Assembly (NCBI GenBank): GCA_002787405.1
Contig: PCWQ01000007.1
Coordinates: forward strand, 31,296 to 95,295
DNA length: 64,000 nt
Reading direction: 5' to 3'
Origin: Candidatus Komeilibacteria bacterium CG11_big_fil_rev_8_21_14_0_20_36_20
Lineage (GTDB): Bacteria; Patescibacteriota; Patescibacteriia; UBA1558; GWA2-36-10
The position numbers and the translations under genes are program-made. The number at the start of each line of letters is the position of its first letter. Positions within the stretch are counted from its first letter, which is position 1. This document shows, piece by piece, positions 11,091 to 27,623 of the stretch. The notes below the pieces were generated by a model, which saw only the letters and a list, made by a program, of their open reading frames with translations, was not told where the DNA came from and searched no databases.

Positions 11091-11106
11091 AATGTTATTT
11101 TAAATT

Positions 11107-11948: not shown

Positions 11949-11980
11949 AATCCTTTAAAGTTATTAAAATTGTTGATTGA

Positions 11981-12976
11981 TTATCGTGCCCCTTTTATAG
12001 CAATCACCACCATATGAGATGATAAACCATTATCTGCTAACCACTTCTGAAAAGAATCTGAGTATTTTTCCCATTCATCAATTAAGACCCGCTTGAAAAA
12101 TGCTTGTTTATCAAGTGAAATAACCCCCTCTCTTACTTTGTTTCTAACTAACTCAGCATCTAATTTACCAGGAGTTTTAATCTCCAAAACTTCAAAACCG
12201 TTGGTTTCTAATAATAAAGAAATGGATTCTGGATGAAAATAATTCAAATGATCTGGAGCAGTTGTATTATCAGAATGCTCTCCTAAAACTAATAAATCAA
12301 AACCTTTAATATTTGGGGTTGTTAAAAATAATAATCCACCGTCATTTAATTTATCTGATATGCTCTTAAGATACTCAATTGGATTAAACACATGCTCTAT
12401 GGACTCAATACTTGTCGCCACATTAACTTTATTAATATTCACATTTTCAATAAAACCCTCTACGACCTGCAAACCTTTCTGACGACAAGACTCTGCTGGA
12501 CTTGGGTCTGGCTCAACAGCAATTACTTGTTTAAATTTTCCTGTCTTTTTTATCTGCTCACAAAAAGTGCCACAACCAGCCCCAACATCCATGAATGATT
12601 CAGTAGGAATTTTATATTTTTCACAAAATTTAATAATTTCCTTCACCCGTGGCATAATAATATGCTTTATTCTAGCTGCCTCTGATTGAGGATAAACGTT
12701 TTCGTTCCAAAATTTTTCAGCTAAAGAAGTTTTATAATGTTCAAAGACTATTTGCTGCGTCGGTCGAGGATTTACAAAAACTGTTTCGCAAATATTACAT
12801 TGTACAAAAATAAAGCCGTCTCTTTTATAAAAAAAATTGTACTCTTTCTTGCCACAGGCAGGACAATTTATCTCTACAAATTGATCTTTCTTTGACAATA
12901 CCCTATCCTGATCTAATTTGTATAATCTCCTACCCTCGGCACGAAAATTATCCGCCCTGATATCATTTTCCTTCAT
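11981..12976 (-). CDS. SAM-dependent methyltransferase with an N-terminal Cys4 zinc ribbon (sugar C- or O-methyltransferase-like)
   Basis: A zinc-ribbon-like CPACG...CNIC is followed by the MTase motif DVGAGCGTFCEQI. 331 aa. Confidence 0.65.
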   Translation of the reverse strand: MKENDIRADNFRAEGRRLYKLDQDRVLSKKDQFVEINCPACGKKEYNFFYKRDGFIFVQCNICETVFVNPRPTQQIVFEHYKTSLAEKFWNENVYPQSEAARIKHIIMPRVKEIIKFCEKYKIPTESFMDVGAGCGTFCEQIKKTGKFKQVIAVEPDPSPAESCRQKGLQVVEGFIENVNINKVNVATSIESIEHVFNPIEYLKSISDKLNDGGLLFLTTPNIKGFDLLVLGEHSDNTTAPDHLNYFHPESISLLLETNGFEVLEIKTPGKLDAELVRNKVREGVISLDKQAFFKRVLIDEWEKYSDSFQKWLADNGLSSHMVVIAIKGAR

Positions 12977-13001: not shown

Positions 13002-14105
13002 CTATTTGATTGGATCTTTCAATATCCACTCCCCTATTTTATTCTTTTTCCACATTGGTCCCCTAAATTTTTCAGCTACATTCCAGAATTTATCTAAAGT
13101 GATACCGATATAATCACAAAACTGTTTGATAAATTTCACGCCACATTTACCATCATATTCCCTAACGAGTTTGACGCCCTCTTCTCTGGTTATTCTACCA
13201 GCCCAGATATCAGCGCAAGCTTCATCGGTGGCAAAACCATAACCAAGTTTCATATGTTTTAACATCTGATTCATAATTCCCGTATCATCATCAAGGGCGT
13301 GATATTTTGTATAACGTCCCAACTCCAAAGCATCATCGGTTCTAATATGTAGACCTCTATTAATGGCAAACATTGCATGCTCATGTGGCGACCATCTCTT
13401 ATAATAGCCAAGATATATCATTTTGACTCCTGATTGTCTTATCTCCTCTTGAGATGGATAATGATAAGGGATTAGATCTTTAGCTGTCACACCATCACAA
13501 AGAAGATGGGATGAGTCACCCGAAAAACCTAAAGTATTTTGTTCATTAATTCTTGATGCATCACCACCATTTTTGTCTTCAGTGTCATCATCTAAAGTCG
13601 TAGTTTCAATATCAAAAATAACTAAGGGAACTTTATACATAATAGCTGCTCTCACCGGCGTTGCATATAAAGCATATTCCGAAGGCTTAACAGGGTTCCC
13701 CCAAGTATAAAAAGCCATTTTAGCCACTTTTTGACAGACCTTAGGATTAGGTCTAAACATAAAACAATCAAAGCCCATTTTTTGTAAATTATTGATATTA
13801 TGTCTGCCTATTTCAGTGATACCGTCAGGAACCATGTTGGCCAGCAGAACATTAAGACCAAGTACATCTCTGGCATAAAGCGCCATATAAGTACTGTCTT
13901 TGCCACCACTCACTCCAACCACACAATCATATTGAGCCCCTTTGTTTTTAGCTTCCTGAGCTATGTCTATAAGCTGTTTCCTCCTTCCCTCCCAGTCTAT
14001 CTTATCCAAGGATTCATAATAACGACAAAAGTTACAAACACCCCTGTCATCGAAATTTATACCTGGCCTTGTTTCAGGTACAACACATTTTGTACAATAC
14101 CTCAT
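13002..14105 (-). CDS. N-acetyl sugar amidotransferase (WbpG/PseA-like PP-loop ATP pyrophosphatase)
   Basis: An N-terminal Cys-rich region (MRYCTKCVVPETRPGINFDDRGVCNFC) and the PP-loop VVGVSGGKDSTYMALYA fit the WbpG/PseA family. Confidence 0.75.
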   Translation of the reverse strand: MRYCTKCVVPETRPGINFDDRGVCNFCRYYESLDKIDWEGRRKQLIDIAQEAKNKGAQYDCVVGVSGGKDSTYMALYARDVLGLNVLLANMVPDGITEIGRHNINNLQKMGFDCFMFRPNPKVCQKVAKMAFYTWGNPVKPSEYALYATPVRAAIMYKVPLVIFDIETTTLDDDTEDKNGGDASRINEQNTLGFSGDSSHLLCDGVTAKDLIPYHYPSQEEIRQSGVKMIYLGYYKRWSPHEHAMFAINRGLHIRTDDALELGRYTKYHALDDDTGIMNQMLKHMKLGYGFATDEACADIWAGRITREEGVKLVREYDGKCGVKFIKQFCDYIGITLDKFWNVAEKFRGPMWKKNKIGEWILKDPIK

Positions 14106-14130: not shown

Positions 14131-14985
14131 TTATCTTGATGTTAATTTTCTTTTTTTGAAAAATAAAGCTGTTTTTAACCAACTATAATATCTTAAATAT
14201 GTTATTAATATTAAAAATGGAAGAATGGCGATATCTTTAACAAAACCCGAACTTTTAAATGGTGTAATAAAATCGGTCATAAATGGATGACAATAAGATT
14301 TTAATTTTCTACTAATGCTCCAATTCTTAGCGTATTTCTTATAAAATAAACAGTCGCCACGACCATAACGAATCCAACGATCTATAATTGCTCCTATTGA
14401 AGCAAAACCCTTTTCATAACAAATAGCCTCAGAAATGGCAAATTTATGACCATCTTTAGCCATTCTAGTACAAAGATCTGTATCATCACTATTAGTCATA
14501 AAAGTATCATATCTATACTTTTTTAATACCTCTCTTAGAAAGAGAGTTGGCGTGCCAACTACATTCTTATAACCCGGCTTATATTTTTCTCTGTAAATAT
14601 TCTGAGCCCAACCAAGATAAGAATCTGTTTCACTTAACATTGTTATAGCAGAAACTATCGCACACTTATACTTCTCTAGATACTCTATCATCTTTATTAA
14701 AGATCCCTGGGGCATTATATTGTCAGCGCCAACAAAAACGATGTATTTACATTCGGCTGCATCTAATCCTATGTTTCGTGCATTGCCAAGCCCTTTTCGG
14801 CTATCATTAACAATTTTATCTACAAAAGGTCTGGCTATCTCTGTTGTTTTATCAGTTGAACCAGCGTCGACTAAAATTATTTCTTTAGGATTATTTTCTT
14901 TAACCGAGCTTAAGCATCCTTCTATTATCTCCTCACAATTATACGAACAAACAACCACCGATAGATCTAATAATTCATCTTCCAT
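14131..14985 (-). CDS. family 2 glycosyltransferase
   Basis: A GT-A signature reads LSVVVCSYNCEEII...ILVDAGSTDKT. 284 aa. Confidence 0.75.
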   Translation of the reverse strand: MEDELLDLSVVVCSYNCEEIIEGCLSSVKENNPKEIILVDAGSTDKTTEIARPFVDKIVNDSRKGLGNARNIGLDAAECKYIVFVGADNIMPQGSLIKMIEYLEKYKCAIVSAITMLSETDSYLGWAQNIYREKYKPGYKNVVGTPTLFLREVLKKYRYDTFMTNSDDTDLCTRMAKDGHKFAISEAICYEKGFASIGAIIDRWIRYGRGDCLFYKKYAKNWSISRKLKSYCHPFMTDFITPFKSSGFVKDIAILPFLILITYLRYYSWLKTALFFKKRKLTSR

Positions 14986-14986
14986 A

Positions 14987-16417
14987 TTATCTTTTCATGA
15001 CTAATTTTAAATAATGCATAATATAAATAAAGCTATCTTTAGTGTTTTTCACTTCATATTTTAAATTCCTTCTAATAGATGGCACGTCTTTGATTATTAA
15101 AAAAATTCTATTTGGCGGCAATTTAATCAATAAATTTACTAGCCATTTCAAATTCGGGAAACGAATTAAAAGATAACATAATTTATCTAAATTTATTAAT
15201 TGTCTTATATTATCCTGTTTTATAAGCGAATTATTGCTATCGGCGGTTGAACCAGCATTTTTGTAGGTAATTATATCTTTAAGATAATTATTATCAAGGC
15301 AATAATTCCCTATCTGAGTTTTAGGATAAGGTACCAAGACATTAGAGTTAATATCATCTAAATCAAGCTGCCTACATAAATTTATAGTCTCATAAGCATT
15401 ATCCATAGTTTCTCCTGGCCAGCCAAATATAATATCTGCGCCTATTCTAATTTGATATTTTTTTAACAGTTGACAAGCTGCTATTATTTGCTTATTGCTC
15501 ATGTTACGATTTAATAGCTCTTTTCTTAAAGTTTCATTGCCAGTTTGGATACCAATAACAAGCTTATCGCAACCAGCTTTTTTTAAAAGAGCAATATATT
15601 CTTCACTAATATCTTCAACTCTGGCATAAATTATAAATCCTGGCAATTTTTTTTCTATGTACAATTTCAAAAACTCTCTTACTTGTTCTAATTTTACATT
15701 AAAAGTTGCATCTTGAAACCTAGCCCATTTCAAACCATATTTATCTTTAACATATAATAGCTCCGCTATGAGCTTTTGAGGCGAATATAAGCGAAAATGA
15801 GTCCCGCCTCCATCCCTATAAAATTGATTTATCCAATTAGTATAGCAATAGGAACATCGAAAAGGGCAACCTCGTGATAAAATGAACGGTTTTGTCTCTA
15901 ACTTTCTTAATTTCTCATATTTCTTAAAATAAATATCTCTATCAAAAGAAGGTAAATGTTCTATATTATTAACATATGCTATGGCTGTATTTTTTTCCAC
16001 TTGTCCATTTTTCTTAAACCAAATTCCTGGAATATTGAAAAAATTTTCTTTCTTGTCTAGTCGATTTAAAATTTCTAGACAAGCTAACTCGCCGTCACCC
16101 ACACACATTAAATCTATACAATCCTCATTAACTATTTCCGGAAAAACTAAAGTAAATGCCCCGCCAATTAAAGTTAAAATATCTTTATTTATCTTCTTTA
16201 TCTCTCTCAAAATTGCAAGAACATCTTCCTGCTCTCCGATACATAAACTACAAGCAACTATATCGGGCTTAAAATTCATTACTGATTCGTAAAAACTATC
16301 TTCTTCCTCTAAACAAAAAACATCAACTACATGACCATGCTCCTTCAAAACTGAAGATATGGCCATGACGCCTAAATTTTCTAACAAGATATGCTGAAGA
16401 AAAGCAATTCTGGCCAT
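14987..16417 (-). CDS. cobalamin-binding radical SAM enzyme (class B radical SAM)
   Basis: An N-terminal B12-binding-like domain precedes the radical SAM motif CPFRCSYCY. The start codon overlaps the stop of the upstream paralog. Confidence 0.8.
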   Translation of the reverse strand: MARIAFLQHILLENLGVMAISSVLKEHGHVVDVFCLEEEDSFYESVMNFKPDIVACSLCIGEQEDVLAILREIKKINKDILTLIGGAFTLVFPEIVNEDCIDLMCVGDGELACLEILNRLDKKENFFNIPGIWFKKNGQVEKNTAIAYVNNIEHLPSFDRDIYFKKYEKLRKLETKPFILSRGCPFRCSYCYTNWINQFYRDGGGTHFRLYSPQKLIAELLYVKDKYGLKWARFQDATFNVKLEQVREFLKLYIEKKLPGFIIYARVEDISEEYIALLKKAGCDKLVIGIQTGNETLRKELLNRNMSNKQIIAACQLLKKYQIRIGADIIFGWPGETMDNAYETINLCRQLDLDDINSNVLVPYPKTQIGNYCLDNNYLKDIITYKNAGSTADSNNSLIKQDNIRQLINLDKLCYLLIRFPNLKWLVNLLIKLPPNRIFLIIKDVPSIRRNLKYEVKNTKDSFIYIMHYLKLVMKR

Positions 16418-18150
16418 TAAAGAGCCCCCCCTTCCAACAAATTCAATTCCTTGTTTATATCAATTTTAAAATGCTTAAAATAACTTCTAGAAGTCTCACT
16501 TGTCTTTAATATATCTTGAGCTTTATGCCAATTATCTTTAACCTTTAATAAATCCCCTTTGATTTCATACGCTTTGCCGAGAACATAATAAGCAATCGCA
16601 TGATCTGGTGCTAATTCAATCACTCCTTTAAAATCTCTAATTGCCTGATCTACTCTATCAGAATTTAAATTTCTGGAATTTATAAAATTGACCTCGAGAT
16701 TGGCTAAATAATTTTTTTCCAAAATATATTCTTTAGAAAAATTTGGCCAATCTACATTACTTGTAACCAAGGGATACCCATATCTTATACTATCAGCCAC
16801 AATATATCCTTTCTGGAGACACTCTTCAAATATTCTTGACCCAGGAATTGCTTGATAATTCCTAATTAAAGCCCAATCTAGATCTAAAGATCGAGCAAAC
16901 TCCAAAGTTTCTTCAACTTCTTTTTTAGTTTCAAAATGAAAACCCGAAATAAAAAAACCAATAATATAACCCTTGCCTAATTTTCTTATTCTTCTAACAA
17001 CATTTTTTGATATCTCTAAATTTAACACTTTGCCAATTTCTTTAAGTGTTTTCTGGCTGCCAGATTCAAAAGCAAGATTAAAGATAGCTATGCCACTATC
17101 ATACATCTTTTTTATTATTTCTTCATCTAGAAAATTTACACCTAAACCTCCTCCAACTCCCCAGCGAATATTCAAACCTCTTTTGATTATTTCATCCATA
17201 ATAGCCACAGCTTTTTTGGTGCTAACTGTAAAATTATCATCATTAAAAACTATTGCATTAACACCATATTCCTTAATAAGTAATTCTATCTCATCTACCA
17301 CATTTTTGGAATTACGATAACGTATTGATCTACCCCAAATGTGTTTTGCTGAACAAAAAGAACAAGAATATGGACAGCCTCGAGAAGCAGTCATAATGCC
17401 TATTTTAGCATTGTTACGACCTAAAACACGAAAGAGAAAATTTCTGCTTAAATTTCCATATTCTGAAAAATCATTGGGCATAATATAGTCATCCGGCGAT
17501 ATGTTAGTTCTGTCAGGAAAAGGCAACTCGTCTAAATTTTTGATTAAAAATTTATTTTCTTTAAATATAATATTTTTATCATCTCTATAAGCTATTCCAT
17601 GCAAATTTTCTACTCCTTTTTCTTTATTTAAAAAAAGAATTAAATCCATAAAACAAATCTCACCTTCTCCAATTATTGCATAATCTATATTATTATCTTT
17701 TAAAGCATCTGAATAAGAAATTGTAGGATAACTGCCGCCTATGACAGTGATTATGTCTGGTGATATTTTCTTTATAAGTGTACATGTTTGATGAACAATA
17801 TGTGATGTAGAATGAAACAAAGAACTCACTCCTATAATATCTGGGGAAACTTCTTCTATTTTATCTTTTAATAAACCCCAAGCTGCAGACATATCAACCT
17901 TCCCCTTAGAAATAAAATGCTTCATAGCCATTAAATTAGCATCAAAAATTTCAATCTCTACATCATTAATCTTACTTTGCAGATAAGAAGAAATATAACC
18001 AAGACCCAGTGGTGACTCTGCAAACTGACCACCAGATATTACCGTCTCGTAATTATAAGAATTGGTCTCTATAATAAATGGATTTATTAATAAAATTTTC
18101 TTGACTCTAGGCATAATTTTTATATAGTTTTTTTGATTTCCAGACAGCAT
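16417..18150 (-). CDS. cobalamin-binding radical SAM enzyme with a C-terminal TPR-like extension
   Basis: A B12-binding-like N-terminal domain precedes CPYSCSFCS. The C-terminal roughly 100 aa are TPR-like. Confidence 0.8.
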   Translation of the reverse strand: MLSGNQKNYIKIMPRVKKILLINPFIIETNSYNYETVISGGQFAESPLGLGYISSYLQSKINDVEIEIFDANLMAMKHFISKGKVDMSAAWGLLKDKIEEVSPDIIGVSSLFHSTSHIVHQTCTLIKKISPDIITVIGGSYPTISYSDALKDNNIDYAIIGEGEICFMDLILFLNKEKGVENLHGIAYRDDKNIIFKENKFLIKNLDELPFPDRTNISPDDYIMPNDFSEYGNLSRNFLFRVLGRNNAKIGIMTASRGCPYSCSFCSAKHIWGRSIRYRNSKNVVDEIELLIKEYGVNAIVFNDDNFTVSTKKAVAIMDEIIKRGLNIRWGVGGGLGVNFLDEEIIKKMYDSGIAIFNLAFESGSQKTLKEIGKVLNLEISKNVVRRIRKLGKGYIIGFFISGFHFETKKEVEETLEFARSLDLDWALIRNYQAIPGSRIFEECLQKGYIVADSIRYGYPLVTSNVDWPNFSKEYILEKNYLANLEVNFINSRNLNSDRVDQAIRDFKGVIELAPDHAIAYYVLGKAYEIKGDLLKVKDNWHKAQDILKTSETSRSYFKHFKIDINKELNLLEGGAL

Positions 18151-18914
18151 ACAGATAGTTGTTGGGGAATTGAATCAGATGATGTTCCATCATTCCATCC
18201 ATAATTATTATCATAAACAAAAATCTTTTTTTCTTCAATTTTAATATTAGGAAAATCTAACAATTTGTTTAAACGTTTATTGTCATATCGCAGCTCCAAA
18301 GCATACAACCCTAAACTATCTTTTTCAGTAATTATTTTTTCTCCTCCAAAAGGAACTGTTAATAATAGTTTGCCTCCTGGTTTTAAAACTCTAATCATTT
18401 CTTTCATTACCTTAAAATCTTCAGTCCATGTTTCAAGAGATGGAAAAAAATCAGGTAAATCTTTAGAACGATCAAATGAAGACCTCCCTCCCGCTAAATT
18501 AACCTTATCAAAGCCAATATGCTCAATGGTGGATATGCACATAATTTGGTTAAAAAAATTATCCGGATATGGTATATTGCGGGCATCAGCTTTTTGAAAT
18601 TTAATCTTTTCTTTCAACAAATCTGTCTCTACAAAATCTGCAAATCTTTTATAATTGAATGGAATAATATCTATAGAATAAAAATCTTCAGTGGAAAGTA
18701 TGAGTGATTCAAAAAAAACTTTAAAATATTTCCGATCAAAAAATGTTGTACTTAGATCTAATACTTTTTCATGTTTATCTTTTAAAACCCGTAAAATAAC
18801 CCAAGGAATTTCCACGCAACGCATTGATTTTTCCATTAACAAACTACTAAATCCCTGCTCACCGTGGCCAATATCATTTTTTTTATCTTGAAGGAATTTT
18901 TTTATTTCTTCCAT
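18120..18914 (-). CDS. class I SAM-dependent methyltransferase
   Basis: Methyltransf_11-like motifs are present (IPYPDNFFNQIMCISTIEHI and LKPGGKLLLTVPFG). Confidence 0.55.
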   Translation of the reverse strand: MEEIKKFLQDKKNDIGHGEQGFSSLLMEKSMRCVEIPWVILRVLKDKHEKVLDLSTTFFDRKYFKVFFESLILSTEDFYSIDIIPFNYKRFADFVETDLLKEKIKFQKADARNIPYPDNFFNQIMCISTIEHIGFDKVNLAGGRSSFDRSKDLPDFFPSLETWTEDFKVMKEMIRVLKPGGKLLLTVPFGGEKIITEKDSLGLYALELRYDNKRLNKLLDFPNIKIEEKKIFVYDNNYGWNDGTSSDSIPQQLSVCCLEIKKTI

Positions 18915-18915
18915 A

Positions 18916-21084
18916 TTAATGACTTAAATCAATGACTATTTTATTTCTAAATAAAGAATCTGATGAACTCAATAATTTTTCCTCTTTATTAGCTATAACA
19001 ATTATCTCTGAAAATTTGACAAGCTCTTTCAAGTTATCCGTCAATAATGAAGATATATGTGGAATATGATTTATAATATAGTTTTTATTAGCTCCAAATA
19101 TTCTTGCCATATAAATATTTTTATCAAATATTGACACTTCAATCCCTTTGCCTATTAAATGCTCTACTATATCTATCATGGGGCTGTTTCTTAAATCATC
19201 TGTATTTTCTTTAAACGATAAACCAATTATCCCAATTTTCTTTTTATTAAAAGATAAAATAGTCTTTAAAATATTCTTTATATGCATGTTGTTGCTATTT
19301 AAAATATTAAATATCACCGGCAATTCTAAATCTCTCTTTTTAGCTCTGTTAACAAAAGCATTCAAATCTTTAGGAAGACATGAACCACCAAAGGGTTTGC
19401 CTGGCTTTAAATAATACGGTGATAAATTTAATTTTCTATCTTTGCAAAATATCTCCATAACTTTATGAGAATTAACACCAGCTGACTTACAGAATGTATC
19501 AATTTCATTAGCAAATGAAACCTTAAGAGCATGAAAAACATTATCAACATATTTAACAGTCTCTGCTGTTTTAATGTCAGTAACCATTTTCTCGCCAGAA
19601 ACATTATTATACAATAAATCCATCAAAAATTTGCCATCCTTTTCATCTTCTGCTCCAATAATTATTTTAGGGGGATTATAAAAATCAAAAATAGCTGAAC
19701 CCTCTCTTAAAAACTCCGGATTATGACATAATTTAATATTCTTGAATACTTTTTCTCCACATATTTTTAATAACATTGGCTTAATTATTGAATCAATTGT
19801 CCCTGGTAAAATAGTACTCCTAATTATAATAGTATGTTCCGAATTCTTTACCAATAAAGCTTTTGCTATTGTCGTAATAGCTTTTTCAATACTTGTATAA
19901 TCAATGCTGCCATTAGCTAAAGATGGCGTACCCACGCAAATCACGCTAATAGCCGTATTGATTATTGCAAAATCAACATCATCGGTGGCTTTTAATCTTC
20001 CGCACTCGACAGCGCTTTTTATTAAAGGACCTAATTCTGTTTCTATTAATGGGGCAACTCCTTGATTAATGGCTCCGATTTTAATAGGATTAACATCAAC
20101 ACCGATAATTTCAAAATTATTCTTTGCTAAACAGGCAGCGGAAACACAACCAACGTAGCCTAAACCGAAAATGCTGATTTTATTTATTTGATCTACGGAG
20201 GGCAAGCTTATTTTATCAACCGGCTCGCTTACCTTGTGTACACTAGAGAAATCCTGATGCTGCATCAAACTTCTAATTGCTAATTGCTCCTCTTCTTTCA
20301 AGGATTTAAAATAACCATCATCTCTTTTTATGTCACTATTGATTTCTAGCAACTCCGGATAATCTTTTAATAAATTAAGTATATCTTTCATGAAAAAAAT
20401 ATTTCTATCTTTGTATAAATTCTTATACACTTCTCTGACAAATTTTAAATCGCGTTCTTCATCAACTGTCCAACGCATTTGAGAATAATCCTGATCACAA
20501 TCATCTCCCTGAAAAGTATTAATTTTAAAGATTTGAGAATTATTCCAAATATAAGGCGTCACATGTTCTCTCTCGGATTTTAACTTTGCTTCTTTCCATG
20601 CTTTTTCTAAAGAACTAAAATTAAATACTTCCGTGTCTAAACCATCAGGATATGCTGAATCCATTGATTTATTAGTATGAGCTGTGCTAACATAATCAAA
20701 ATTATTTTTTAAGAAATATTCTATTGTTTTATCTATGATATTTGGATCTATCAAAGGACAGTCGCCTGTGATCCTTACAATGATATCAGTTTTATATTTC
20801 TTTGCTGCTTGATAATATCTATCTAAAACATCTGATTCGCTTCCCGTATAAACATCAATGCCTATTTGAGACGCGACTTCAACTAACTTCTGATCTATCA
20901 GCTTGTCACTAGTGGCTAATATTACTTTATCAATTTTACTAGTGCTTTTGACCCTATTTACTACATGCCAAATCATTGGTTTGCCAGCAATATCAGCTAT
21001 TACTTTATTAGGCAACCTTTCCGCACTCATCCTAGCTTGAATAATTGCTACTATCATAATATTTGTGGGGCTAGACCATAACAA
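18916..21084 (-). CDS. bifunctional fusion of an N-terminal PseF/SpsF-like acylneuraminate cytidylyltransferase and a C-terminal UDP-sugar 6-dehydrogenase
   Basis: The N-terminus (IIQARMSAERLPNKV) is characteristic of the CTP_transf_3 family. The C-terminal half carries the NAD-binding motif GLGYVGCVSAACLA and the catalytic-Cys motif FGGSCLPKD of the UDP-glucose/GDP-mannose dehydrogenase family. Confidence 0.75.
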   Translation of the reverse strand: MLWSSPTNIMIVAIIQARMSAERLPNKVIADIAGKPMIWHVVNRVKSTSKIDKVILATSDKLIDQKLVEVASQIGIDVYTGSESDVLDRYYQAAKKYKTDIIVRITGDCPLIDPNIIDKTIEYFLKNNFDYVSTAHTNKSMDSAYPDGLDTEVFNFSSLEKAWKEAKLKSEREHVTPYIWNNSQIFKINTFQGDDCDQDYSQMRWTVDEERDLKFVREVYKNLYKDRNIFFMKDILNLLKDYPELLEINSDIKRDDGYFKSLKEEEQLAIRSLMQHQDFSSVHKVSEPVDKISLPSVDQINKISIFGLGYVGCVSAACLAKNNFEIIGVDVNPIKIGAINQGVAPLIETELGPLIKSAVECGRLKATDDVDFAIINTAISVICVGTPSLANGSIDYTSIEKAITTIAKALLVKNSEHTIIIRSTILPGTIDSIIKPMLLKICGEKVFKNIKLCHNPEFLREGSAIFDFYNPPKIIIGAEDEKDGKFLMDLLYNNVSGEKMVTDIKTAETVKYVDNVFHALKVSFANEIDTFCKSAGVNSHKVMEIFCKDRKLNLSPYYLKPGKPFGGSCLPKDLNAFVNRAKKRDLELPVIFNILNSNNMHIKNILKTILSFNKKKIGIIGLSFKENTDDLRNSPMIDIVEHLIGKGIEVSIFDKNIYMARIFGANKNYIINHIPHISSLLTDNLKELVKFSEIIVIANKEEKLLSSSDSLFRNKIVIDLSH

Positions 21085-21710
21085 GATCTAATAACCAGAT
21101 GGCGATGGATATTAAATCCATTTTTATTAATTTTTTCTGGATCTACATAACGTCCTATATAAACCCTATCACCATTGTGGTCCTTGTCAGAACACCAAAT
21201 AAAATCGTGCGCCCATAAAATCTGACCCTTATTTAATAAATAATAAGAAAAGAAAGTAAAAGCTGCTAAAATGGCTGAAGGGAAACCTTCCTTCATTTTT
21301 AAATCATTGTGTATTGTTTCAGGACTTTTACCACGACTATCTTCTGTAACATTTTTTTTAATTAAATACCATTTAAAATCTAAAACTTGATCATTAGCGA
21401 ATTTCTCATTCAAATACCAGTCCTGACTATAAAAACAGGGCTCTGATTTATCAGGCTGCCAACCAAAAATTGATCGCAGTTTGTTGATTGTTAATTTTTG
21501 TCCATCTGAGCTTTCGGGCATTCCTAGAATCAAAATATAATCATGTTTAATATTAATTTGCTCTAGATAATCCACGCTAAAAGGAACTTTTGGTATTGAT
21601 GATCTAAAGTTAAACGTATTAGATATTTTAAACTCGGAACTTATCGTCTTAAGCTCTTCCGGCCCAATAAAATCCGAGCCCATTATTTTTTTTATTTGTT
21701 GAAAATCCAT
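21054..21710 (-). CDS. hypothetical protein
   Basis: A 218-aa ORF in operon context with no recognisable motif. Confidence 0.4.
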   Translation of the reverse strand: MDFQQIKKIMGSDFIGPEELKTISSEFKISNTFNFRSSIPKVPFSVDYLEQINIKHDYILILGMPESSDGQKLTINKLRSIFGWQPDKSEPCFYSQDWYLNEKFANDQVLDFKWYLIKKNVTEDSRGKSPETIHNDLKMKEGFPSAILAAFTFFSYYLLNKGQILWAHDFIWCSDKDHNGDRVYIGRYVDPEKINKNGFNIHRHLVIRSCYGLAPQIL

Positions 21711-21716
21711 ATTTAA

Positions 21717-22310
21717 CTACTTTTGTTTCTCTTTCCAACTTTGATAATCCACTGCTGCTCTAATACTAACCAGATGGCCCTTTTTTCTATATTGTTTTAT
21801 TTTTGCCAACTCCACCCCTAAAAGTTGCAAGCGAGTTAGATTAGAATAACTAGTTTGTTCAAACCAGGAAAGGTCGCGAGCAGGCGCATTAAATATTTGT
21901 ATTTTTAATCTTGCCTGCTTCATTGCTTGTAAAAATGTAAGAAATGCTCTATCTTGATGAAAATGTGAAGCAACCAAAATTATTTTTTTCCACTTTTTAT
22001 TCCTTACTATCTTCATCACCTCCACCCCCTGATCATAGGTGTTCTGAGAATTATCTTCTATAACAATTTTATTTTTTGGTACACCTGCTTTTAATAATTT
22101 TTTAGCTAATAGACCAGCAGGAATAGTAAACTGCGGTACACTAGTGCACCCGCCTGAGACAACAATATTTTTTGCTAAGCCATCTTGAAATATTTTTAAG
22201 GTCTGTTTGAATCGATTATAACCATCTCCTTCTAACCAAATAACAGCATCTGATTTTTTAACAATGTCATTACTAGTGATGGCTATTAATGCTACCTCGT
22301 TAAATTTCAT
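21717..22310 (-). CDS. hypothetical protein (possibly DUF218/YdcF-like)
   Basis: 197 aa. The IVVSGG stretch is reminiscent of DUF218; the similarity is weak. Confidence 0.35.
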   Translation of the reverse strand: MKFNEVALIAITSNDIVKKSDAVIWLEGDGYNRFKQTLKIFQDGLAKNIVVSGGCTSVPQFTIPAGLLAKKLLKAGVPKNKIVIEDNSQNTYDQGVEVMKIVRNKKWKKIILVASHFHQDRAFLTFLQAMKQARLKIQIFNAPARDLSWFEQTSYSNLTRLQLLGVELAKIKQYRKKGHLVSIRAAVDYQSWKEKQK

Positions 22311-22325
22311 AATTATTTTAATTAT

Positions 22326-23438
22326 CTAATTAAGATCTCCCCAATATATTGCTTCTCTGGCTTTAATATCATTCTTAGCTCTGCGTCCAACTATAGTATC
22401 CTTATGTTTTGGAAGAATACCTACCGCTGGTCTTAATTCAATAATATCATCATCTTTAATAACTTCGCCTTTATTAATGTCTTTCTTGGCGTGCAATGAA
22501 CGACGTTGAACAATTACCGTTTCTGCTTCTTCTTCAACCACATCTTTCACGGTACTGCCAAGGGCTTTCTCTAATAATCTTATTTGCTCAACCATTTTTT
22601 TGAATTTTTGTGCTTCCATTGAATGAGGATGATCTGGTCCATTGTCTTTATTGCTCAAAGTAAAATGTTTTTCAATCACCCTTGCTCCTAAGGCGACTGC
22701 TCCTAAAACCACTAAACTGCCAGGGGAATGATCAGAATAACCAGTCATAACATCAAAAGTGTTTTGATACGTTTTTAATACATTAATATTAGCACTCTCA
22801 ACTTTTGATGGATAATTAGTAATGCACTGCAAAAGCACTAAATCATTATTGCCTGTTGATTTGATAATTTTAACCGCCTCATCTATTTCAGCGAGGGTGC
22901 TATCTCCAGTTGACAGCATTATTGGTTTATTTTTCTTAGCAATGTATTTTAATATTTCATGCCAAGTGATATCTCCTGAACCAATCTTAAAAAAATCAAC
23001 TCCTAACTCATCCAAAAGATCTACAGCTGCAAAATCATAAGGAGCAGAAGTAAACAAGACACCTATTTGCTGACAATAATCAAAAAGTTCTCTATGCCAT
23101 TCTCTTGGAAATTCAGCTTCCTTAAAAACTTCATCAATAGGCTTATCCCATGTTCCATGCACTCCCTTTAACTTCATTTTGGAAAAACTTGGCCCAGAAA
23201 CAATCGTATCAGCCGAAAAAGTCTGAAACTTTACTACATCAGCACCAGATTTTTTAGCAGCCAAGGCTAACTTTTTAGCTTTTTCTAAACTACCATCAAA
23301 ATTTGCTCCAATATCAGCTATAATTAAGGTAGAGTGACCTTCACCAATAAATTTATGAGCAATGGGAATATTTTTAGAAAATTTACTCATACACTTTACT
23401 TTAATAATAATTTCTTTAAATCTTTTGCTGTCATCCAC
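22326..23438 (-). CDS. nonulosonic acid synthase (NeuB/PseI/LegI family, with C-terminal SAF domain)
   Basis: LIIADIGANFDGSLEKAKKLALAAKKSGADVVKFQTF is typical of NeuB-family aldolases. 370 aa. Confidence 0.85.
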   Translation of the reverse strand: MDDSKRFKEIIIKVKCMSKFSKNIPIAHKFIGEGHSTLIIADIGANFDGSLEKAKKLALAAKKSGADVVKFQTFSADTIVSGPSFSKMKLKGVHGTWDKPIDEVFKEAEFPREWHRELFDYCQQIGVLFTSAPYDFAAVDLLDELGVDFFKIGSGDITWHEILKYIAKKNKPIMLSTGDSTLAEIDEAVKIIKSTGNNDLVLLQCITNYPSKVESANINVLKTYQNTFDVMTGYSDHSPGSLVVLGAVALGARVIEKHFTLSNKDNGPDHPHSMEAQKFKKMVEQIRLLEKALGSTVKDVVEEEAETVIVQRRSLHAKKDINKGEVIKDDDIIELRPAVGILPKHKDTIVGRRAKNDIKAREAIYWGDLN

Positions 23439-24367
23439 TCTTTATTTGTGTCGCTAACAAAACCAATGTTAGACTCCATCTTCTTCCCCATATCTAAAAA
23501 CTTTTTAAAATGTTCTTCCTTATTATAAGACTCGGACAAAACAACAAAATATTTATCTAACTCTACTGTATGTCTGGTTTCTTCTTTAGTTACCAGTGTT
23601 TCGTGTAATTTTTCACCAGGCCTGATGCCAATGATTTCCCTAGGGACGTTAGGCGCTAGGGCGTTAACTAAATCAACTAGTTTCATACTCGGAATTTTTG
23701 GTATAAAAATTTCTCCTCCCTGCATATTCTCTAGAGTAAATAACACTAATCTAAAAGCTTGCTCTAAGGTTATCCAAAATCTAGTCATCCTTTCATCAGT
23801 TATATATACCTTTTCAAGACTTGATTTCTTCAAAAGATGTTCCACAATACTTCCCCGACTGCCTATAACGTTGCCGTATCTAACACAACTAAACTTAGTT
23901 TTATCAGTGGCGTAAGAATTACCACTGCTAAATAATTTTTCTGCACAAAGTTTGGTCGACCCGTATAAATTGACCGGCTGAGCAGCTTTATCAGTCGAAA
24001 TTAATACCACTCTCTTAACTTGCTGATCAATAGCGGCATCAATAACGTTCTGGCTGCCTAGAATATTCGTTTTTACTGCCTCAAATGGATTATATTCTAA
24101 TGTTGGAATTTGTTTTAAAGCCGCTGCATGAATAATAATATCAACCCCACGAAAAGCCCGTTGCAATCTCTGTAAATCTCGCACATCACCAAGAAAAAAT
24201 CTTAACCTATCATCAGATATTTCTTTTTTCATTTCTGACTGCTTTAATTCATCACGGCTGAAGACGATTAATTTCTTTAGTTGATAATTATCAAGTAAAA
24301 ATTTTGTAAAGCTTTTGCCAAAAGATCCGGTTCCACCGGTGACTAAAACGGTTTTATTGTCTAACAT
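23396..24367 (-). CDS. UDP-GlcNAc 4,6-dehydratase (PseB/CapD-like SDR)
   Basis: The N-terminus reads MLDNKTVLVTGGTGSFGKSF...IVFSRDELKQSEM, as in PseB/FlaA1. Confidence 0.85.
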   Translation of the reverse strand: MLDNKTVLVTGGTGSFGKSFTKFLLDNYQLKKLIVFSRDELKQSEMKKEISDDRLRFFLGDVRDLQRLQRAFRGVDIIIHAAALKQIPTLEYNPFEAVKTNILGSQNVIDAAIDQQVKRVVLISTDKAAQPVNLYGSTKLCAEKLFSSGNSYATDKTKFSCVRYGNVIGSRGSIVEHLLKKSSLEKVYITDERMTRFWITLEQAFRLVLFTLENMQGGEIFIPKIPSMKLVDLVNALAPNVPREIIGIRPGEKLHETLVTKEETRHTVELDKYFVVLSESYNKEEHFKKFLDMGKKMESNIGFVSDTNKEWMTAKDLKKLLLK

Positions 24368-24414: not shown

Positions 24415-25836
24415 CTATTTTAATGCCTCAATTACTCTCTTGGTCATATTAGACATACTCTCTTGTCTACTAATTTTTGTTGGTAAATCAGTGGGATTGA
24501 TAATAAAAGCATCAAAATTAATATTATCGACGCTTTTCAAATAATTAATAATATCCTGCTGATTTATACGAAAACCATTTTTAATTCTATTAAAAGCCAC
24601 CTTACAACTTTCAACATTATTCACTCTAAAAACACCAGGACAATCTCTATACCAGGGAAGTCCGAAGATAAGAGGTGGCTTAGAATTTAATAATGCTTCC
24701 CAGCCAGCTGTCCCAGTAACTGTAGCCACCGCTTGTGCTTTATAGATAAGATCAAAGGTACTAGTCGAAACTGGGATTAAAGACACATTCTTTAATTTTA
24801 AAATCTTTGTATAATAACCTGGATAGCGACCATCTGCATAATTTATTCCATGAAACCACCATTGAGCAGGGTGTTCCTTTGTATATATAACCCAATCATC
24901 AGGCAAGGCGCTACTCAAAACCTCTAACATAAGAATTTGATCAACAAATACATCGCCCATAGGGCTAGTTGTATATTCGGGCTGATATTGCAGTGGTACG
25001 TAAATAAATTTTTTGGATAAATCCGGAACACATTGAAATTTAAGATATTCTTTTTTGGTATTTTGTTTTAATCTCTTATTAAGATGCCCCATGGCCGATT
25101 TCAAAATCTTCCCCCGCTTAATATGCTTACCTGTAATTTTTAATTTAGTTAAAAATAAATTGACCCCAGTATACTGCCTCCTTCCTTCTTTCATATATAT
25201 TGGCGTCGCATCGCGATTCTTATCCACACCTTGAATATAGTGTTCTCGTAAATCATTACTAAGATCTTCGATGGAAAAATGTTTACCTCTATTACTCTCT
25301 ATTTCCTTACATAAGACCTGACTACCCTTACGAAAGTCTTCGTACATGATAGTTTTACCAAACTGCCATGTTGATTCGAACATTAGTGTTTTTATTCTGA
25401 ATAATTTTGCTAAGGAATAAATCACATAATCATGCGATGAATGAGGTGGAAAGGCATAAACAATAGCATCTGGTTTATATTTTTTAAGAACGCCATTCCA
25501 ATATTGTAAAAGGTTGTAATATAAATGTTTGCGTTCATCAACCCTCTGCATGCCATGACACTTTCTATTCATCATGGTTAAAATTAAAGATTCATCATGA
25601 TATAATTTCTCTATTAAATCAACACCCGGCGCTGGAAATTGCGATGTATCAACACCCGGCGCTGGTTTAGCGACCCAAGCATCTGGATGATTATGAAAAA
25701 TAATTTCAGGATATTTCTTTTCTACTCCCCCAGAAAACCCTAGCCAATAAACAACCTTATGAGAATTTCTTTTTAATTCTAATAGTAATTCTTCTATTTC
25801 TGGCCCACATTGTGTCCAACTCAAAAGTATACGCAT
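24415..25836 (-). CDS. capsule-polysaccharide-biosynthesis-like protein (KpsC/KpsS family, Capsule_synth); candidate retaining Kdo or nonulosonic-acid transferase
   Basis: The segment YVPLQYQPEYTTSPMGDVFVDQILMLEVLSSALPDDWVIYTKEHP matches the Capsule_synth core pattern (vLfPLQ...vvKeHP). Confidence 0.5.
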   Translation of the reverse strand: MRILLSWTQCGPEIEELLLELKRNSHKVVYWLGFSGGVEKKYPEIIFHNHPDAWVAKPAPGVDTSQFPAPGVDLIEKLYHDESLILTMMNRKCHGMQRVDERKHLYYNLLQYWNGVLKKYKPDAIVYAFPPHSSHDYVIYSLAKLFRIKTLMFESTWQFGKTIMYEDFRKGSQVLCKEIESNRGKHFSIEDLSNDLREHYIQGVDKNRDATPIYMKEGRRQYTGVNLFLTKLKITGKHIKRGKILKSAMGHLNKRLKQNTKKEYLKFQCVPDLSKKFIYVPLQYQPEYTTSPMGDVFVDQILMLEVLSSALPDDWVIYTKEHPAQWWFHGINYADGRYPGYYTKILKLKNVSLIPVSTSTFDLIYKAQAVATVTGTAGWEALLNSKPPLIFGLPWYRDCPGVFRVNNVESCKVAFNRIKNGFRINQQDIINYLKSVDNINFDAFIINPTDLPTKISRQESMSNMTKRVIEALK

Positions 25837-25841: not shown

Positions 25842-27623
25842 CTAATTATTTCTTAAATTATATATTTTAAAAAAATAAGAATTTTTATTTTTTAATAATG
25901 CCTTTGGCCTTCCTTGTTCAATAATTTTACCTCCACTTAAAACAATCAATCTATCCGCATCAGTTATCGTTGATAATCTATGCGCAATCACTAGAACTGT
26001 CATATAACCTTTAAGATGATTAATAACTTCTTGTATTTCTTTTTCCGATTCAACATCCAAAGCGCTCGTTGCTTCATCAAAAATCAATAATTGTGGATTT
26101 TTAACCAAAATACGCGCAATAACAACTCTTTGACGCTGTCCAGCTGAAAGTAAAATACCGCGCTCGCCAATTATAGTATCAAACTTATCAGGATAACCTT
26201 GAATAAAATTATAGATACTAGCCATCTTAGCAGCTTGTTCTACTTCTTGATCACTAATGGAGTTATCATAAAATTTAATATTATTGGCAATTGTATCGTT
26301 TATTAAAAATATATCTTGAGAAACATAACCAATGTTCTTTCGCCAATCATCTAAACTAATGGAATTAATATTTTTTCCGTCCAACAAAATTTGTCCATCC
26401 TTAGGATTAAATAAACGCAAAATCAAATCAATTAACGTGGTCTTTCCAACTCCCGAAGGACCTATAATACCAATCATCTCCCCTTTCTTGACTCCAAAAT
26501 TAATATTAGACAATATTTTTTTATGATGCTCATAATAAAAATTTATATTTTTAAATTCTAAATTTTTATTAAACAAAAAGGGAGCTGATCCCTTATTAAT
26601 TTCTTTGTTAGCGACAGCTTTTTGTTCGTAACTTAATACACTATTCAAATATGGAACAAATTCATTAATAGTATTTAAATTGCTTTGTAATTGCTGAAAA
26701 TATACAAAAATTCTTTCTATTAAATATATTATTGCCGCTAGAGACGCAAAATTAAAATCGGGTGATTTATAGAAAAAAGCAAAGATTAAACAAATAAAAA
26801 TTATACTAACAGGTTGAATAAGAGAATATGAGATGGCCTGCAATAAAAGAATTTTTATTGATATTTTTTTTAACTTATTAAAATAATCTTGCCCCTTTAA
26901 CAATACTTTATTCTCAACAGACATTCCTTTGACTGTTTTAATCCCCATAATATTCTCATTAACATAATGCGCTATCTCCTTATTACTATCTGACATCTTT
27001 CTAGAAGATACTTTAATCTTATAAATTATCGGTTTTAAAAAAAGAAACAGTAACATTCCTATGGCGAAAACCAGTGCAGTAATAGTCATAGAAATGTTTA
27101 TTGCTACTAAAGTATAAATCAATAAACTAGTTATTTGCATTATAGCGGCACTAATTTGTCTTAATAAAACCGCACTGGCACGCACATCTGTCATTATGAC
27201 AGTTTCTAGATAGCCTAACTTTTGCTTTAATAAATATGGCCAGTCGGCCTTAAGAGTTTTATCTAATAATAAGCCCCTGGTTTTTTCTTCATAATCCGAA
27301 GTTATTTTTATCTTAATATAATTAAAAATAACTGTTGCAACTGTTTTTAAAAAAAACAAAATACTAATAAATATTAGTAGCCATATTACACTTGGGGTAA
27401 TATGAATAAACGAGAAAAAATTACCAATAATTCTAGATATCAAATTATCGCCAGATTGATCCTTTAAGATAAAAGAAAATAAAGGAATTAAAGTATTAAT
27501 TCCAATACCTTCCAACAAACTTGCTATAAAGCCCAATATTACTAAAATTATGATTTGTGATTTATATTTTCCAAACGCTTCTTTTGATAATTTTAGAATT
27601 GTAGTTACTCTATTATTTCTCAT
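25842..27623 (-). CDS. ABC exporter, fused permease and ATPase (MsbA/PglK-like)
   Basis: Six N-terminal TM helices are followed by Walker A (GPSGVGKTT), the ABC signature (LSAGQRQRVVIAR) and Walker B (LLIFDEATSALD). Confidence 0.85.
   Translation of the reverse strand: MRNNRVTTILKLSKEAFGKYKSQIIILVILGFIASLLEGIGINTLIPLFSFILKDQSGDNLISRIIGNFFSFIHITPSVIWLLIFISILFFLKTVATVIFNYIKIKITSDYEEKTRGLLLDKTLKADWPYLLKQKLGYLETVIMTDVRASAVLLRQISAAIMQITSLLIYTLVAINISMTITALVFAIGMLLFLFLKPIIYKIKVSSRKMSDSNKEIAHYVNENIMGIKTVKGMSVENKVLLKGQDYFNKLKKISIKILLLQAISYSLIQPVSIIFICLIFAFFYKSPDFNFASLAAIIYLIERIFVYFQQLQSNLNTINEFVPYLNSVLSYEQKAVANKEINKGSAPFLFNKNLEFKNINFYYEHHKKILSNINFGVKKGEMIGIIGPSGVGKTTLIDLILRLFNPKDGQILLDGKNINSISLDDWRKNIGYVSQDIFLINDTIANNIKFYDNSISDQEVEQAAKMASIYNFIQGYPDKFDTIIGERGILLSAGQRQRVVIARILVKNPQLLIFDEATSALDVESEKEIQEVINHLKGYMTVLVIAHRLSTITDADRLIVLSGGKIIEQGRPKALLKNKNSYFFKIYNLRNN

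Follow-up and report, generated by a model that had tools for sequence, protein, structure and literature searches.

From the gene content, we infer that the region between 8.1 and 27.6 kb on the - strand of the window (the whole 64-kb stretch of DNA analyzed here, from Candidatus Komeilibacteria bacterium CG11_big_fil_rev_8_21_14_0_20_36_20) encodes an alternative CMP-nonulosonate pathway. The constant four-gene core of this predicted pathway is PseB > NeuB > DUF218 > ORF-X. In the best explanation of the whole, toward which we lean by a small degree, the DUF218 protein and ORF-X would release UDP and a class-III enzyme would carry out the amination. Nonulosonic acids occur on capsules, O-antigens, flagella, and S-layers, where they shape immune and phage recognition, and the canonical pseudaminic acid pathway of Campylobacter jejuni and Helicobacter pylori runs through PseB-PseC-PseH-PseG-PseI-PseF. 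Like that pathway, the one in the window starts with an equivalog-level PseB, has a NeuB-family synthase with PseI as the closest solved structure, ends with a CMP-transferase step, and includes a PseA/WbuX-type amidotransferase for an acetimidoyl group. It differs in that PseC, PseH, and PseG were not found in the window, the cytidylyltransferase is KdsB-like rather than PseF, the aminotransferase is of class III (a non-PseC DegT or an SDR in relatives), and the unrelated YdcF/DUF218 and ORF-X proteins are attached to the synthase. Furthermore, tailoring apparently goes with the CMP-transferase and not with the synthase.

All genes described below are on the - strand. The first core gene (23396..24367) encodes PseB, an inverting UDP-GlcNAc 4,6-dehydratase that scored 462 bits against TIGR03589 (cutoff 407.75) and matched Polysacc_synt_2 at 2.4e-95; judged by model score, it is a bona fide enzyme of this type. 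The LegB model reached just 63 bits in the window (cutoff 475), and no LegB-type dehydratase was found there. The second core gene (22326..23390) encodes a NeuB-family nonulosonate synthase of 354 aa with a PF03102 match (3.4e-86) and a SAF domain. This protein is under both equivalog cutoffs, namely, TIGR03569 (NeuB_NnaB; 345 vs. 399.65) and TIGR03586 (PseI; 321.5 vs. 340.25), and its closest PDB entry is PseI 8h2c (224 bits); by these scores, its predicted placement is a clade of its own that leans toward PseI. The public annotation of this genome wrongly labels this NeuB as FlgA. An earlier reading made from the sequence only had reported that the PseB and NeuB genes overlap by 43 nt. This overlap is an ORF-calling artifact because the longest ORF was taken, which starts from GTG 23438. 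A start at ATG 23390, 5 nt past the PseB stop, removes the overlap, and the resulting product of 354 aa is the one annotated in most public assemblies for this population.

The remaining two core genes encode a cytosolic YdcF/DUF218 protein of 197 aa (21717..22310) and ORF-X (21054..21710), a protein of 218 aa that belongs to a conserved family without a name and is an obligate partner of DUF218 and NeuB. These are followed by a gene (18916..21057) that encodes a KdsB-like cytidylyltransferase (residues ~1-255; CTP_transf_3, PF02348, 9.1e-39) fused to an NDP-sugar 6-dehydrogenase (residues ~290-713; N-terminal, central, and C-terminal UDPG_MGDP_dh domains in Pfam). The fusion gene starts at ATG 21057 (21084 in the longest ORF), where it has an ATGA overlap with the ORF-X stop; together with a 6-nt gap, this makes the spacing in the window translationally coupled. 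The sequence-only reading had described a PseF-like synthetase in this fusion. The fusion of a cytidylyltransferase to a dehydrogenase is indeed present, but the PseF-like label does not hold, as the score with the PseF model TIGR03584 was 35.5 bits (cutoff 205.7). Higher scores, up to 93 bits, came from KdsB-type models, again under their cutoffs. In the closest relative (L099), the cytidylyltransferase and the dehydrogenase are two separate genes.

Several other genes extend this region. A methyltransferase, two B12-binding radical-SAM enzymes, and a GT2 (14131..18914; Pfam) form a tailoring/transfer block that has an identical order in L099; from its position, we infer a tie to the nonulosonate. 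The WbuX/PseA-type N-acetyl sugar amidotransferase (13002..14105; N-acetyl to acetimidoyl) scored 318 bits against TIGR03573 (cutoff 203). In L099, the amidotransferase is part of the same conserved block, immediately before the class-III aminotransferase. Pfam and TIGR models thus agree with the identities first proposed for PseB, the NeuB-like synthase, and this amidotransferase (originally called WbpG/PseA-like). Immediately upstream of PseB is a KpsS/KpsC-like Capsule_synth protein (24415..25836; PF05159, 2.9e-09), a candidate ulosonic-acid transferase. This position is conserved in Patescibacteria, and the CapS>PseB order was found again in L012, L018, L020, L021, L022, L028, L044, L072, and L099. 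Further upstream is a fused TMD-NBD ABC exporter (25842..27623; ABC_membrane and ABC_tran), whose position is kept in L012 and L099. Rfam and tRNA scans of the window gave no matches.

The absence of a DegT/PseC aminotransferase, a GNAT, and PseG, first noted for the locus, holds across the whole 64-kb window. The Pfam scan, which covered the listed window ORFs of at least 100 aa except for a few short + strand ORFs nested in - strand genes, found no DegT, GNAT, hexapeptide acetyltransferase, PseG, or Epimerase_2. Six-frame tblastn of the window with DegT, GNAT, LbH, Epimerase_2, SDR, DUF4910, and AAC(3) seeds gave no hits at E<=0.01. For PseC (TIGR03588/PF01041), there was no PF01041 match in the scanned ORFs, and tblastn with four DegT seeds was negative. 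No window match was found for a PseH-type GNAT or hexapeptide acetyltransferase, and ORF-X and DUF218 have different folds; likewise, no PseG (a GT-B UDP-sugar hydrolase) and, by Pfam and tblastn, no Epimerase_2 match indicative of a NeuC/LegG hydrolysing 2-epimerase (PF02350) was found in the window. The sole aminotransferase in the window is, as first read, a class-III (HemL-like) enzyme (8094..9407; PF00202, 1.3e-42). Among related loci, a GNAT was found in ~5 of 52 and a hexapeptide acetyltransferase in ~8 of 52, and Epimerase_2 was found in seven surveyed loci. Therefore, the canonical PseH, PseG, and NeuC functions are usually missing from the cassette.

The variant is not confined to this genome. 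We found the cassette in 80 species-level genomes that include Patescibacteria, Bacteroidota (Bacteroides and Prevotella), Firmicutes (Lachnospiraceae), and others, and many relatives have a DegT beside the module. The order NeuB>DUF218>ORF-X is near-invariant across these genomes. DUF218 is directly upstream of ORF-X in 70 of 76 loci (no adjacent DUF218 in the other six), and NeuB is located <=1.5 kb upstream in 66 of 69. Among the 52 fully covered related cassettes, PseB was found in 37 and a cytidylyltransferase in 51. In the window, the cassette spans 18916-24367, with NeuB, DUF218, and ORF-X adjacent and co-oriented and with PseB and the cytidylyltransferase nearby; the same layout was found in L012-L099. 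Cultured Bacteroides have a compact six-gene operon (PseB>CTPt>DegT|AT3>NeuB>DUF218>ORF-X) with no other candidate for UDP release, and a 2.8-kb metagenomic contig encodes a single DUF218-ORF-X fusion protein adjoining NeuB. The cassette seems to be new to the literature, as we did not find a published description. Our searches found no literature on nonulosonic or pseudaminic acid in Patescibacteria/CPR and no publication that combines DUF218 or YdcF with nonulosonate terms, and neither the NulO synthase phylogeny paper nor the SugarBase preprint mentions the DUF218/ORF-X cassette genes.

The two small proteins are dedicated, conserved partners of NeuB, and it is thus very likely that they are non-orthologous pathway enzymes that define a variant pathway, as the sequence-only reading had suggested. 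The folds against which that reading would have had them compared (GT-B, GNAT, or left-handed beta-helix) were found in neither. The DUF218 protein passes the Pfam gathering score of PF02698 and has the YdcF fold, with a nucleotide-binding alpha/beta architecture and conserved Ser/His/Glu/Arg. ORF-X has an FGE/C-type-lectin-like fold with a conserved Cys-His (the invariant residues Cys92 and His202) and a DxDxNGD loop, and the invariant polar residues of both proteins are enzyme-like. Pfam and NCBIfam searches with ORF-X gave no match, and profile searches of both families against PDB sequences returned nothing meaningful, YdcF included. Compared with Escherichia coli YdcF, the DUF218 protein is likewise cytosolic and single-domain but just 21% identical; compared with SanA, it shares the conserved His, Glu, and Ser/Thr of the triad that SanA requires for function. 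In contrast to the E. coli paralogs YdcF, SanA, and ElyC, which have no linkage to nonulosonate genes, the DUF218 protein here is locked to NeuB and ORF-X. Relative to FGE-sulfatase, the EgtB C-terminal domain, and PvdO, ORF-X is ~10% identical, has no match to PF03781 (FGE-sulfatase) in sequence and no Foldseek match, and differs in its N-terminal helical region (which has the motif IMGxNFIGPxEL) and in its genomic context; ORF-X gave no evidence of the copper-binding Cys pair arrangement of FGE. We know of no precedent for an FGE-like fold as a glycoside/pyrophosphate hydrolase or as a subunit of one.

In contrast to the core, the tailoring slot is swappable. It may be occupied by a DegT, a class-III aminotransferase, or a classical SDR, and it co-varies with the cytidylyltransferase only. 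The sequence-only reading had pointed to the HemL-like class-III enzyme as a replacement aminotransferase, and this proposal gained ground from the comparison: a class-III aminotransferase is in or beside the cassette in 21 of 52 related loci and replaces DegT at its position in B. timonensis, B. stercorirosoris, and L080. In particular, it takes exactly the slot in Bacteroides timonensis that DegT has in B. cutis. Between these two species, PseB, NeuB, DUF218, and ORF-X are 94, 87, 86, and 83% identical, respectively, whereas the cytidylyltransferases are just 33% identical and the aminotransferases are unrelated. Across 35 cassettes, the identity of the four core proteins is independent of tailoring type, whereas cytidylyltransferase identity is 55-79% within a type and 32-36% between types. 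Single-linkage clustering of the cytidylyltransferases at 45% identity merged the types. The cytidylyltransferase of the window is 44-62% identical to the aminotransferase-linked types of Patescibacteria and 41-48% identical to the DegT-linked types of Bacteroidota, and these ranges overlap. Such co-variation could also arise simply if the two neighboring genes recombine as a single block.

The window aminotransferase scores under all NCBIfam cutoffs and is an ortholog of the cassette-linked homologs (420-737 bits), with a distance of 11.6 kb from ORF-X. A role for this enzyme with the adjacent carbamoyl/ornithine-like genes was rejected, since those genes are fragmented, and L099 lacks them and has the aminotransferase directly after WbuX. 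In the PDB, it is closest to GSAM and to aminoglycoside C-6' aminotransferases; in sequence, it resembles enzymes that act on non-nucleotide substrates. Similarly, the SDR variant has a likeness to free sugar-acid dehydrogenases, and for the cassette DegT, a match at E<=1e-30 was obtained to KdnA and none to PseC. The Kdo8N pathway of Shewanella (KdnB/KdnA) provides a precedent in which the aminated substrate is a free ulosonic acid and not a nucleotide sugar, and KdnA is among the closest solved relatives of the cassette DegT. However, that pathway concerns an eight-carbon sugar and another position, and involves no NeuB and no DUF218/ORF-X.

In the explanation that we favor, DUF218 and ORF-X would release the 6-deoxy-hexosamine from UDP for NeuB, which is the job of PseG and not that of PseH. 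DUF218 is proposed as the catalytic part of this activity, and this choice of catalytic partner is a guess. The second amino group would come from the class-III aminotransferase, whose substrate may be the free keto-nonulosonate that is formed by condensation. CMP-sugar synthesis would fall to the N-terminal domain of the fusion, and conversion of an N-acetyl to an acetimidoyl group to WbuX. Sugar transfer and product export may be carried out by the KpsS-like protein and the ABC transporter, respectively. A more specific, reordered version is possible but only tentatively proposed: a two-component YdcF/DUF218 and FGE-like ORF-X enzyme would strip UDP from the PseB product, NeuB would condense the free 4-keto-6-deoxy-hexosamine with PEP to a 7-keto-nonulosonate, the C7 substituent would be set last by the class-III aminotransferase, DegT, or sugar-acid-type SDR, and a matching cytidylyltransferase would read that substituent. 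A NulO-9-phosphate phosphatase, as used in Kdn-9-P pathways, was also considered and rejected because the PseB product is a 6-deoxy sugar and cannot carry that phosphate.

A trideoxy fusaminic-type sugar, as in Fusobacterium nucleatum, would be expected from PseB, keto-reduction, NeuB, and an amidotransferase. The SDR-type cassettes with WbuX (L022 and L023) have this gene content, as does the window aside from its aminotransferase; the link is by gene content alone and does not imply stereochemistry. We found nothing in the literature that connects the cassette with F. nucleatum.

Among the other explanations, the best surviving one, which we still regard as unlikely, is that DUF218 and ORF-X tailor the nonulosonate after NeuB (e.g., as an epimerase, a deacetylase, or in lactone handling), with canonical PseG/PseH or NeuC-type enzymes encoded elsewhere. 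The two genes come after NeuB in nearly all loci, and the canonical enzymes, which were not found in the window and are usually missing from the related loci, may be located elsewhere in the genomes. Also, the distinct NeuB clade may make a rare stereoisomer; fusaminic-type and trideoxy nonulosonates occur in nature (PMC7371886). However, an essential step would then be missing in >85% of loci, including compact capsule-locus operons, and one would expect a tailoring pair to differ between product types, yet these two proteins are the most constant part of the cassette.

It is somewhat less probable still that each small protein replaces one textbook enzyme, with DUF218 as a PseG analogue and ORF-X as a PseH analogue (an N-acyltransferase acting through its Cys-His), and with amination of the UDP-sugar in the textbook order. 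The count is attractive, as the six-gene cassette leaves two proteins unassigned and two steps of the textbook pathway without a gene, most cassettes have no recognizable N-acetyltransferase, and the invariant Cys and His of ORF-X are like those of thioester-type acyltransferases. However, the Cys is missing from more distant ORF-X paralogs, and some ORF-X loci have a PseH-like GNAT as well. Furthermore, ORF-X and DUF218 persist with unchanged conservation in classical-SDR cassettes without an aminotransferase (mostly in Prevotella), where an amine to acylate would be lacking; this argues against the PseH-like role suggested for ORF-X. Finally, that the two ORFs are foreign to sugar metabolism (regulators, immunity genes, or hitchhikers) and fortuitously placed is highly improbable: function has been demonstrated for neither protein and regulation of envelope synthesis has been ascribed to the E. 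coli DUF218 paralogs, but the conservation of the trio over 80 genomes of several phyla, the translationally coupled spacing, the enzyme-like residues, and the DUF218-ORF-X fusion protein all argue against it.

This route appears to be widespread, in uncultured Patescibacteria as well as in cultured Bacteroides, Prevotella, and Lachnospiraceae from the human and animal gut. If it is distinct, predictors keyed to PseC/H/G or LegC/H/G gene content will therefore miss producers that use it. ORF-X would represent a new enzyme-like family with an FGE/C-type-lectin-like fold, and the cassette places a cytosolic DUF218/YdcF protein in a tight metabolic context for the first time. The DUF218 paralogs SanA and ElyC influence peptidoglycan and ECA synthesis, and the reaction behind this effect is not assigned. 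If the reordered pathway is true, a first reaction type could be assigned to DUF218 domains, those of ElyC and SanA among them, namely, the cleavage of sugar-1-(pyro)phosphate linkages. The swappable pair of aminotransferase/reductase and cytidylyltransferase may also be a natural toolkit for the enzymatic synthesis of diverse CMP-nonulosonates.

Nearly every gene between 7.3 and 45 kb lies on the minus strand, forming one long glycan locus in a window of about 33% G+C. Every gene identity assigned here in the sequence-only reading was upheld by Pfam and NCBIfam: PseB (23396-24367; TIGR03589, 462 bits against a cutoff of 408), a NeuB-family synthase with a SAF domain (longest ORF 22326-23438, or 22326-23390 from its ATG), a fusion of a CTP_transf_3 cytidylyltransferase and an NDP-sugar dehydrogenase (longest ORF 18916-21084, or 18916-21057 from its ATG), a WbuX/PseA-type amidotransferase (13002-14105; TIGR03573, 318 bits against a cutoff of 203), and a class-III aminotransferase (8094-9407), all on the minus strand. 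The synthase falls below both NCBIfam equivalog cutoffs (345 against 400 for NeuB and 321 against 340 for PseI), and its nearest solved relative is the pseudaminic acid synthase 8h2c. The cytidylyltransferase part of the fusion reaches 35 bits with the PseF model (cutoff 206), and KdsB-type models score better. In NCBI and UniProt the synthase is named "flagellar biosynthesis protein FlgA" (PIR07166.1), a misannotation that hides the pathway and was presumably caused by the SAF domain.

Two further genes follow the synthase on the minus strand: a DUF218/YdcF gene (21717-22310) and ORF-X (21054-21710), which encodes a 218-aa protein. They are separated by 6 nt, and the ORF-X stop overlaps the start codon of the fusion gene (ATG 21057) as ATGA; such tight spacing fits co-translation. 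The 43-nt overlap previously described for PseB and NeuB is an artefact of longest-ORF calling, as ATG 23390 sits 5 nt past the PseB stop and gives a 354-aa protein, the form called in most public assemblies of the population. The fusion is a single 713-aa ORF seen in several assemblies. NDP-sugar dehydrogenase genes also adjoin the nonulosonate cassette in four related loci (L048, L066, L072, and L095).

Pfam was run on the listed window ORFs of at least 100 aa, except for a handful of short plus-strand ones lying within genes of the minus strand, and gave no match to DegT, GNAT, hexapeptide acetyltransferase, PseG-like GT-B, or Epimerase_2. Six-frame tblastn of the window with DegT, GNAT, hexapeptide, Epimerase_2, SDR, DUF4910, and AAC(3) seeds drawn from related loci had a best E of 0.038. 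Because both searches were empty, the absence of DegT, PseH, and PseG types noted earlier for the locus extends to all 64 kb.

DUF218 and ORF-X had been proposed as non-orthologous replacements at the positions where PseG- and PseH-like functions would be expected; neither has a GT-B, GNAT, or left-handed beta-helix fold. With PF02698 the DUF218 protein scores 62.6 bits (threshold 27.6). Its close homologs number over 530, and its AlphaFold model is confident (pLDDT 94.8) and, unlike PseG, not a two-domain GT-B. Its invariant residues include D29, R33, S115, H118, R121, and E167. We know of no reaction established for any DUF218 protein. The function of Escherichia coli SanA needs a Thr-His-Glu triad, genetics links SanA and ElyC to the flux of peptidoglycan and ECA precursors, and YdcF has been described as adenine-nucleotide alpha-hydrolase-like (PMC12176290).

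ORF-X has no match in Pfam or NCBIfam, and its homologs are publicly named "hypothetical protein." The family is strongly conserved, with more than 650 homologs at 45-75% identity and, when a library clustered at 50% was searched with the profile, 263 representatives at E ≤ 1e-10. C92, D97, W98, D175, D177, D181, H202, and R203 are among the invariant residues, and the motifs are an N-terminal IMGxNFIGPxEL and a DxDxNGD loop. The structure model is confident (pLDDT 93.3, pTM 0.92), and Foldseek found no match for it in the PDB. A distant branch of 260-320 aa proteins with an N-terminal extension (P0302, P0336, P0337, P0359, and about 30 others) keeps the IMGxNFxGP motif and lacks Cys92.

The ORF-X profile was used to survey species, one genome each, in a scan that depends on two peptide patterns; 132 relatives were confirmed, and the best 80 loci (ORF-X ± 10 kb) were kept. 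Longest-ORF calls were labeled by phmmer, with seeds taken from the window and from relatives. Carriers among these 80 include Patescibacteria, Prevotella, Lachnospiraceae, Paludibacter, and others, as well as the cultured Bacteroides timonensis, B. stercorirosoris, B. cutis, B. fluxus, and B. hominis. In the same set, DUF218 is the immediate upstream neighbor of ORF-X in 70 of the 76 loci with room for it, and NeuB lies within 1.5 kb upstream in 66/69. One short contig encodes a predicted DUF218-ORF-X fusion (P0241, 424 aa; n = 1) adjoined by NeuB. Among the 52 of these 80 loci with enough flanking sequence, a cytidylyltransferase occurs in 51 and PseB in 37. As tailoring enzyme, 21 of the 52 have DegT alone, nine have the class-III aminotransferase alone, and 12 have both; the other 10 have neither, and a classical short-chain dehydrogenase (SDR; Pfam) is in the cassette instead in nine of these. 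The typical order in Bacteroidota and Firmicutes is PseB, cytidylyltransferase, tailoring gene (DegT, class-III aminotransferase, or SDR), NeuB, DUF218, and ORF-X; in Patescibacteria it is PseB, NeuB, DUF218, ORF-X, cytidylyltransferase, and class-III aminotransferase and/or DegT. Recognizable PseH-like GNATs (about 5/52 loci), hexapeptide acetyltransferases (about 8/52), and Epimerase_2 (seven surveyed loci) are few; therefore, cassettes usually lack the PseH, PseG, and NeuC functions of the textbook pathways, whereas DUF218 and ORF-X are almost always present.

Other genes accompany some cassettes. In SDR-type cassettes a DUF4910/DUF2172/HTH_47 (M28-peptidase-like) gene lies directly 3' of ORF-X (Prevotella loci L059, L065, L077, L079, L082, L083, L087, and L093), and in L016 (5855-7171) a DUF4910-type gene upstream of PseB adjoins one for an AAC(3)-type acetyltransferase; this protein may be another nonulosonate tailoring enzyme. 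An MptE-like (PF01973, Maf-type) protein is encoded downstream of the cassette in 11 Bacteroidota loci (cluster c10, L054-L096; e.g., L076 7869-8732) and is a candidate nonulosonate transferase there, a KpsS/KpsC-like gene being found instead in Patescibacteria.

The class-III aminotransferase of B. timonensis holds the exact DegT slot of B. cutis. Between these two cassettes, PseB is 94% identical, NeuB 87%, DUF218 86%, ORF-X 83%, and the cytidylyltransferase 33%, and the aminotransferases are unrelated. In 35 cassettes with this layout, PseB, NeuB, DUF218, and ORF-X have mean identities that are equal within and between tailoring types (NeuB, 76-77% for DegT/DegT, DegT/class-III, and DegT/SDR pairs alike), and cytidylyltransferase identity is 55-79% within types versus 32-36% between them. 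PseB, NeuB, DUF218, and ORF-X therefore form a constant core, and the tailoring enzyme and cytidylyltransferase a swappable pair. It follows that ORF-X and DUF218 are independent of whether any amine is made, which argues against ORF-X being a PseH-type N-acetyltransferase.

The tailoring type thus seems to make no difference to the synthase, but it does to the CMP-transferase. Such a pattern would be expected if tailoring follows condensation, on the free keto-nonulosonate. Alternatively, two adjacent genes may have been co-inherited by recombination. Tailoring after condensation is also weakly suggested by the relatives of the three enzymes: solved relatives of the class-III enzyme are GSA aminomutases and aminoglycoside C-6' aminotransferases, with non-nucleotide substrates; the SDR resembles free sugar-acid dehydrogenases, such as gluconate 5-dehydrogenase and KduD; and the cassette DegT matches, at E ≤ 1e-30, not PseC but KdnA, whose substrate for amination is a free ulosonic acid. 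Overall, we regard this late order as possible but doubtful.

The window's block recurs in L099, the closest relative found, whose ORF-X is 74% identical: HTH, ABC, KpsS-like, PseB, NeuB, DUF218, ORF-X, cytidylyltransferase, NDP-sugar dehydrogenase, methyltransferase, two radical-SAM genes, GT2, WbuX, and class-III aminotransferase. This places the window's aminotransferase in the same unit as ORF-X despite the 11.6 kb between them, and with 420-737 bits against cassette-linked homologs it is their ortholog. The genomes differ in that the cytidylyltransferase and dehydrogenase, fused in the window, are separate in L099, with 10 nt between their genes, and only the window has an insert (9286-12976) between WbuX and the aminotransferase. 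The insert holds a fragmented ornithine/putrescine carbamoyltransferase (within 9286-11948, minus strand), a frameshift-split NodU-type carbamoyltransferase (10269-11090 and 9286-10254, minus strand), and a methyltransferase (11981-12976). It looks like a decaying insertion, and the carbamoyltransferase breaks are identical in independent assemblies of the population.

Elsewhere on the minus strand, four B12-binding radical-SAM genes form two tandem pairs (14987-18150 and 39057-41941) in this one CPR glycan locus and are accompanied by several SAM methyltransferases, which suggests that sugars or substituents are C- or P-methylated. An RtcB-like gene (34744-36875; weak Pfam match, 93 bits) lies between CDP-alcohol phosphatidyltransferase and GT4 genes and adjoins an asparagine synthase, an unusual setting for an RNA-ligase-type fold. 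Around a 1267-aa ORF with no Pfam match (50191-53994), G+C rises to 42% from about 33% elsewhere; the DNA here is possibly acquired, and an IS200-like transposase gene (46339-46908) is about 3 kb away. Two large Wzy_C (O-antigen ligase/polymerase-like) proteins (2625-4739 and 47034-49307) flank the glycan locus of this organism, which presumably lacks an outer membrane. Among Patescibacteria, 12 loci encode a similar Wzy_C-TPR protein close to the cassette (cluster c8).

In the proposed pathway, PseB would form UDP-2-acetamido-2,6-dideoxy-L-arabino-hexos-4-ulose, and DUF218 with ORF-X may free the sugar from UDP. We infer that UDP release is the sole indispensable step lacking a gene in compact cassettes. 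What points to DUF218 for this step is its nucleotide-binding-type fold and hydrolase-like conserved Ser/His/Glu/Arg; ORF-X is taken as its partner for its carbohydrate-binding-type fold, adjacency, and the one fusion. NeuB would then join the free sugar and PEP, the class-III aminotransferase would supply the second nitrogen before or after condensation, the cytidylyltransferase domain would activate the sugar, and WbuX would generate an acetimidoyl group. Transfer would fall to the KpsS-like protein and export of the product to the ABC transporter. SDR-type cassettes would fit a known natural product, the trideoxy fusaminic-type nonulosonate of Fusobacterium nucleatum (PMC7371886). Our literature search found no paper joining DUF218/YdcF or the ORF-X family to nonulosonic acids, nor one on nonulosonic acids in Patescibacteria. 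A CMP-nonulosonate pathway is a known kind of system; the enzyme set is new, and the order of steps is probably new as well.
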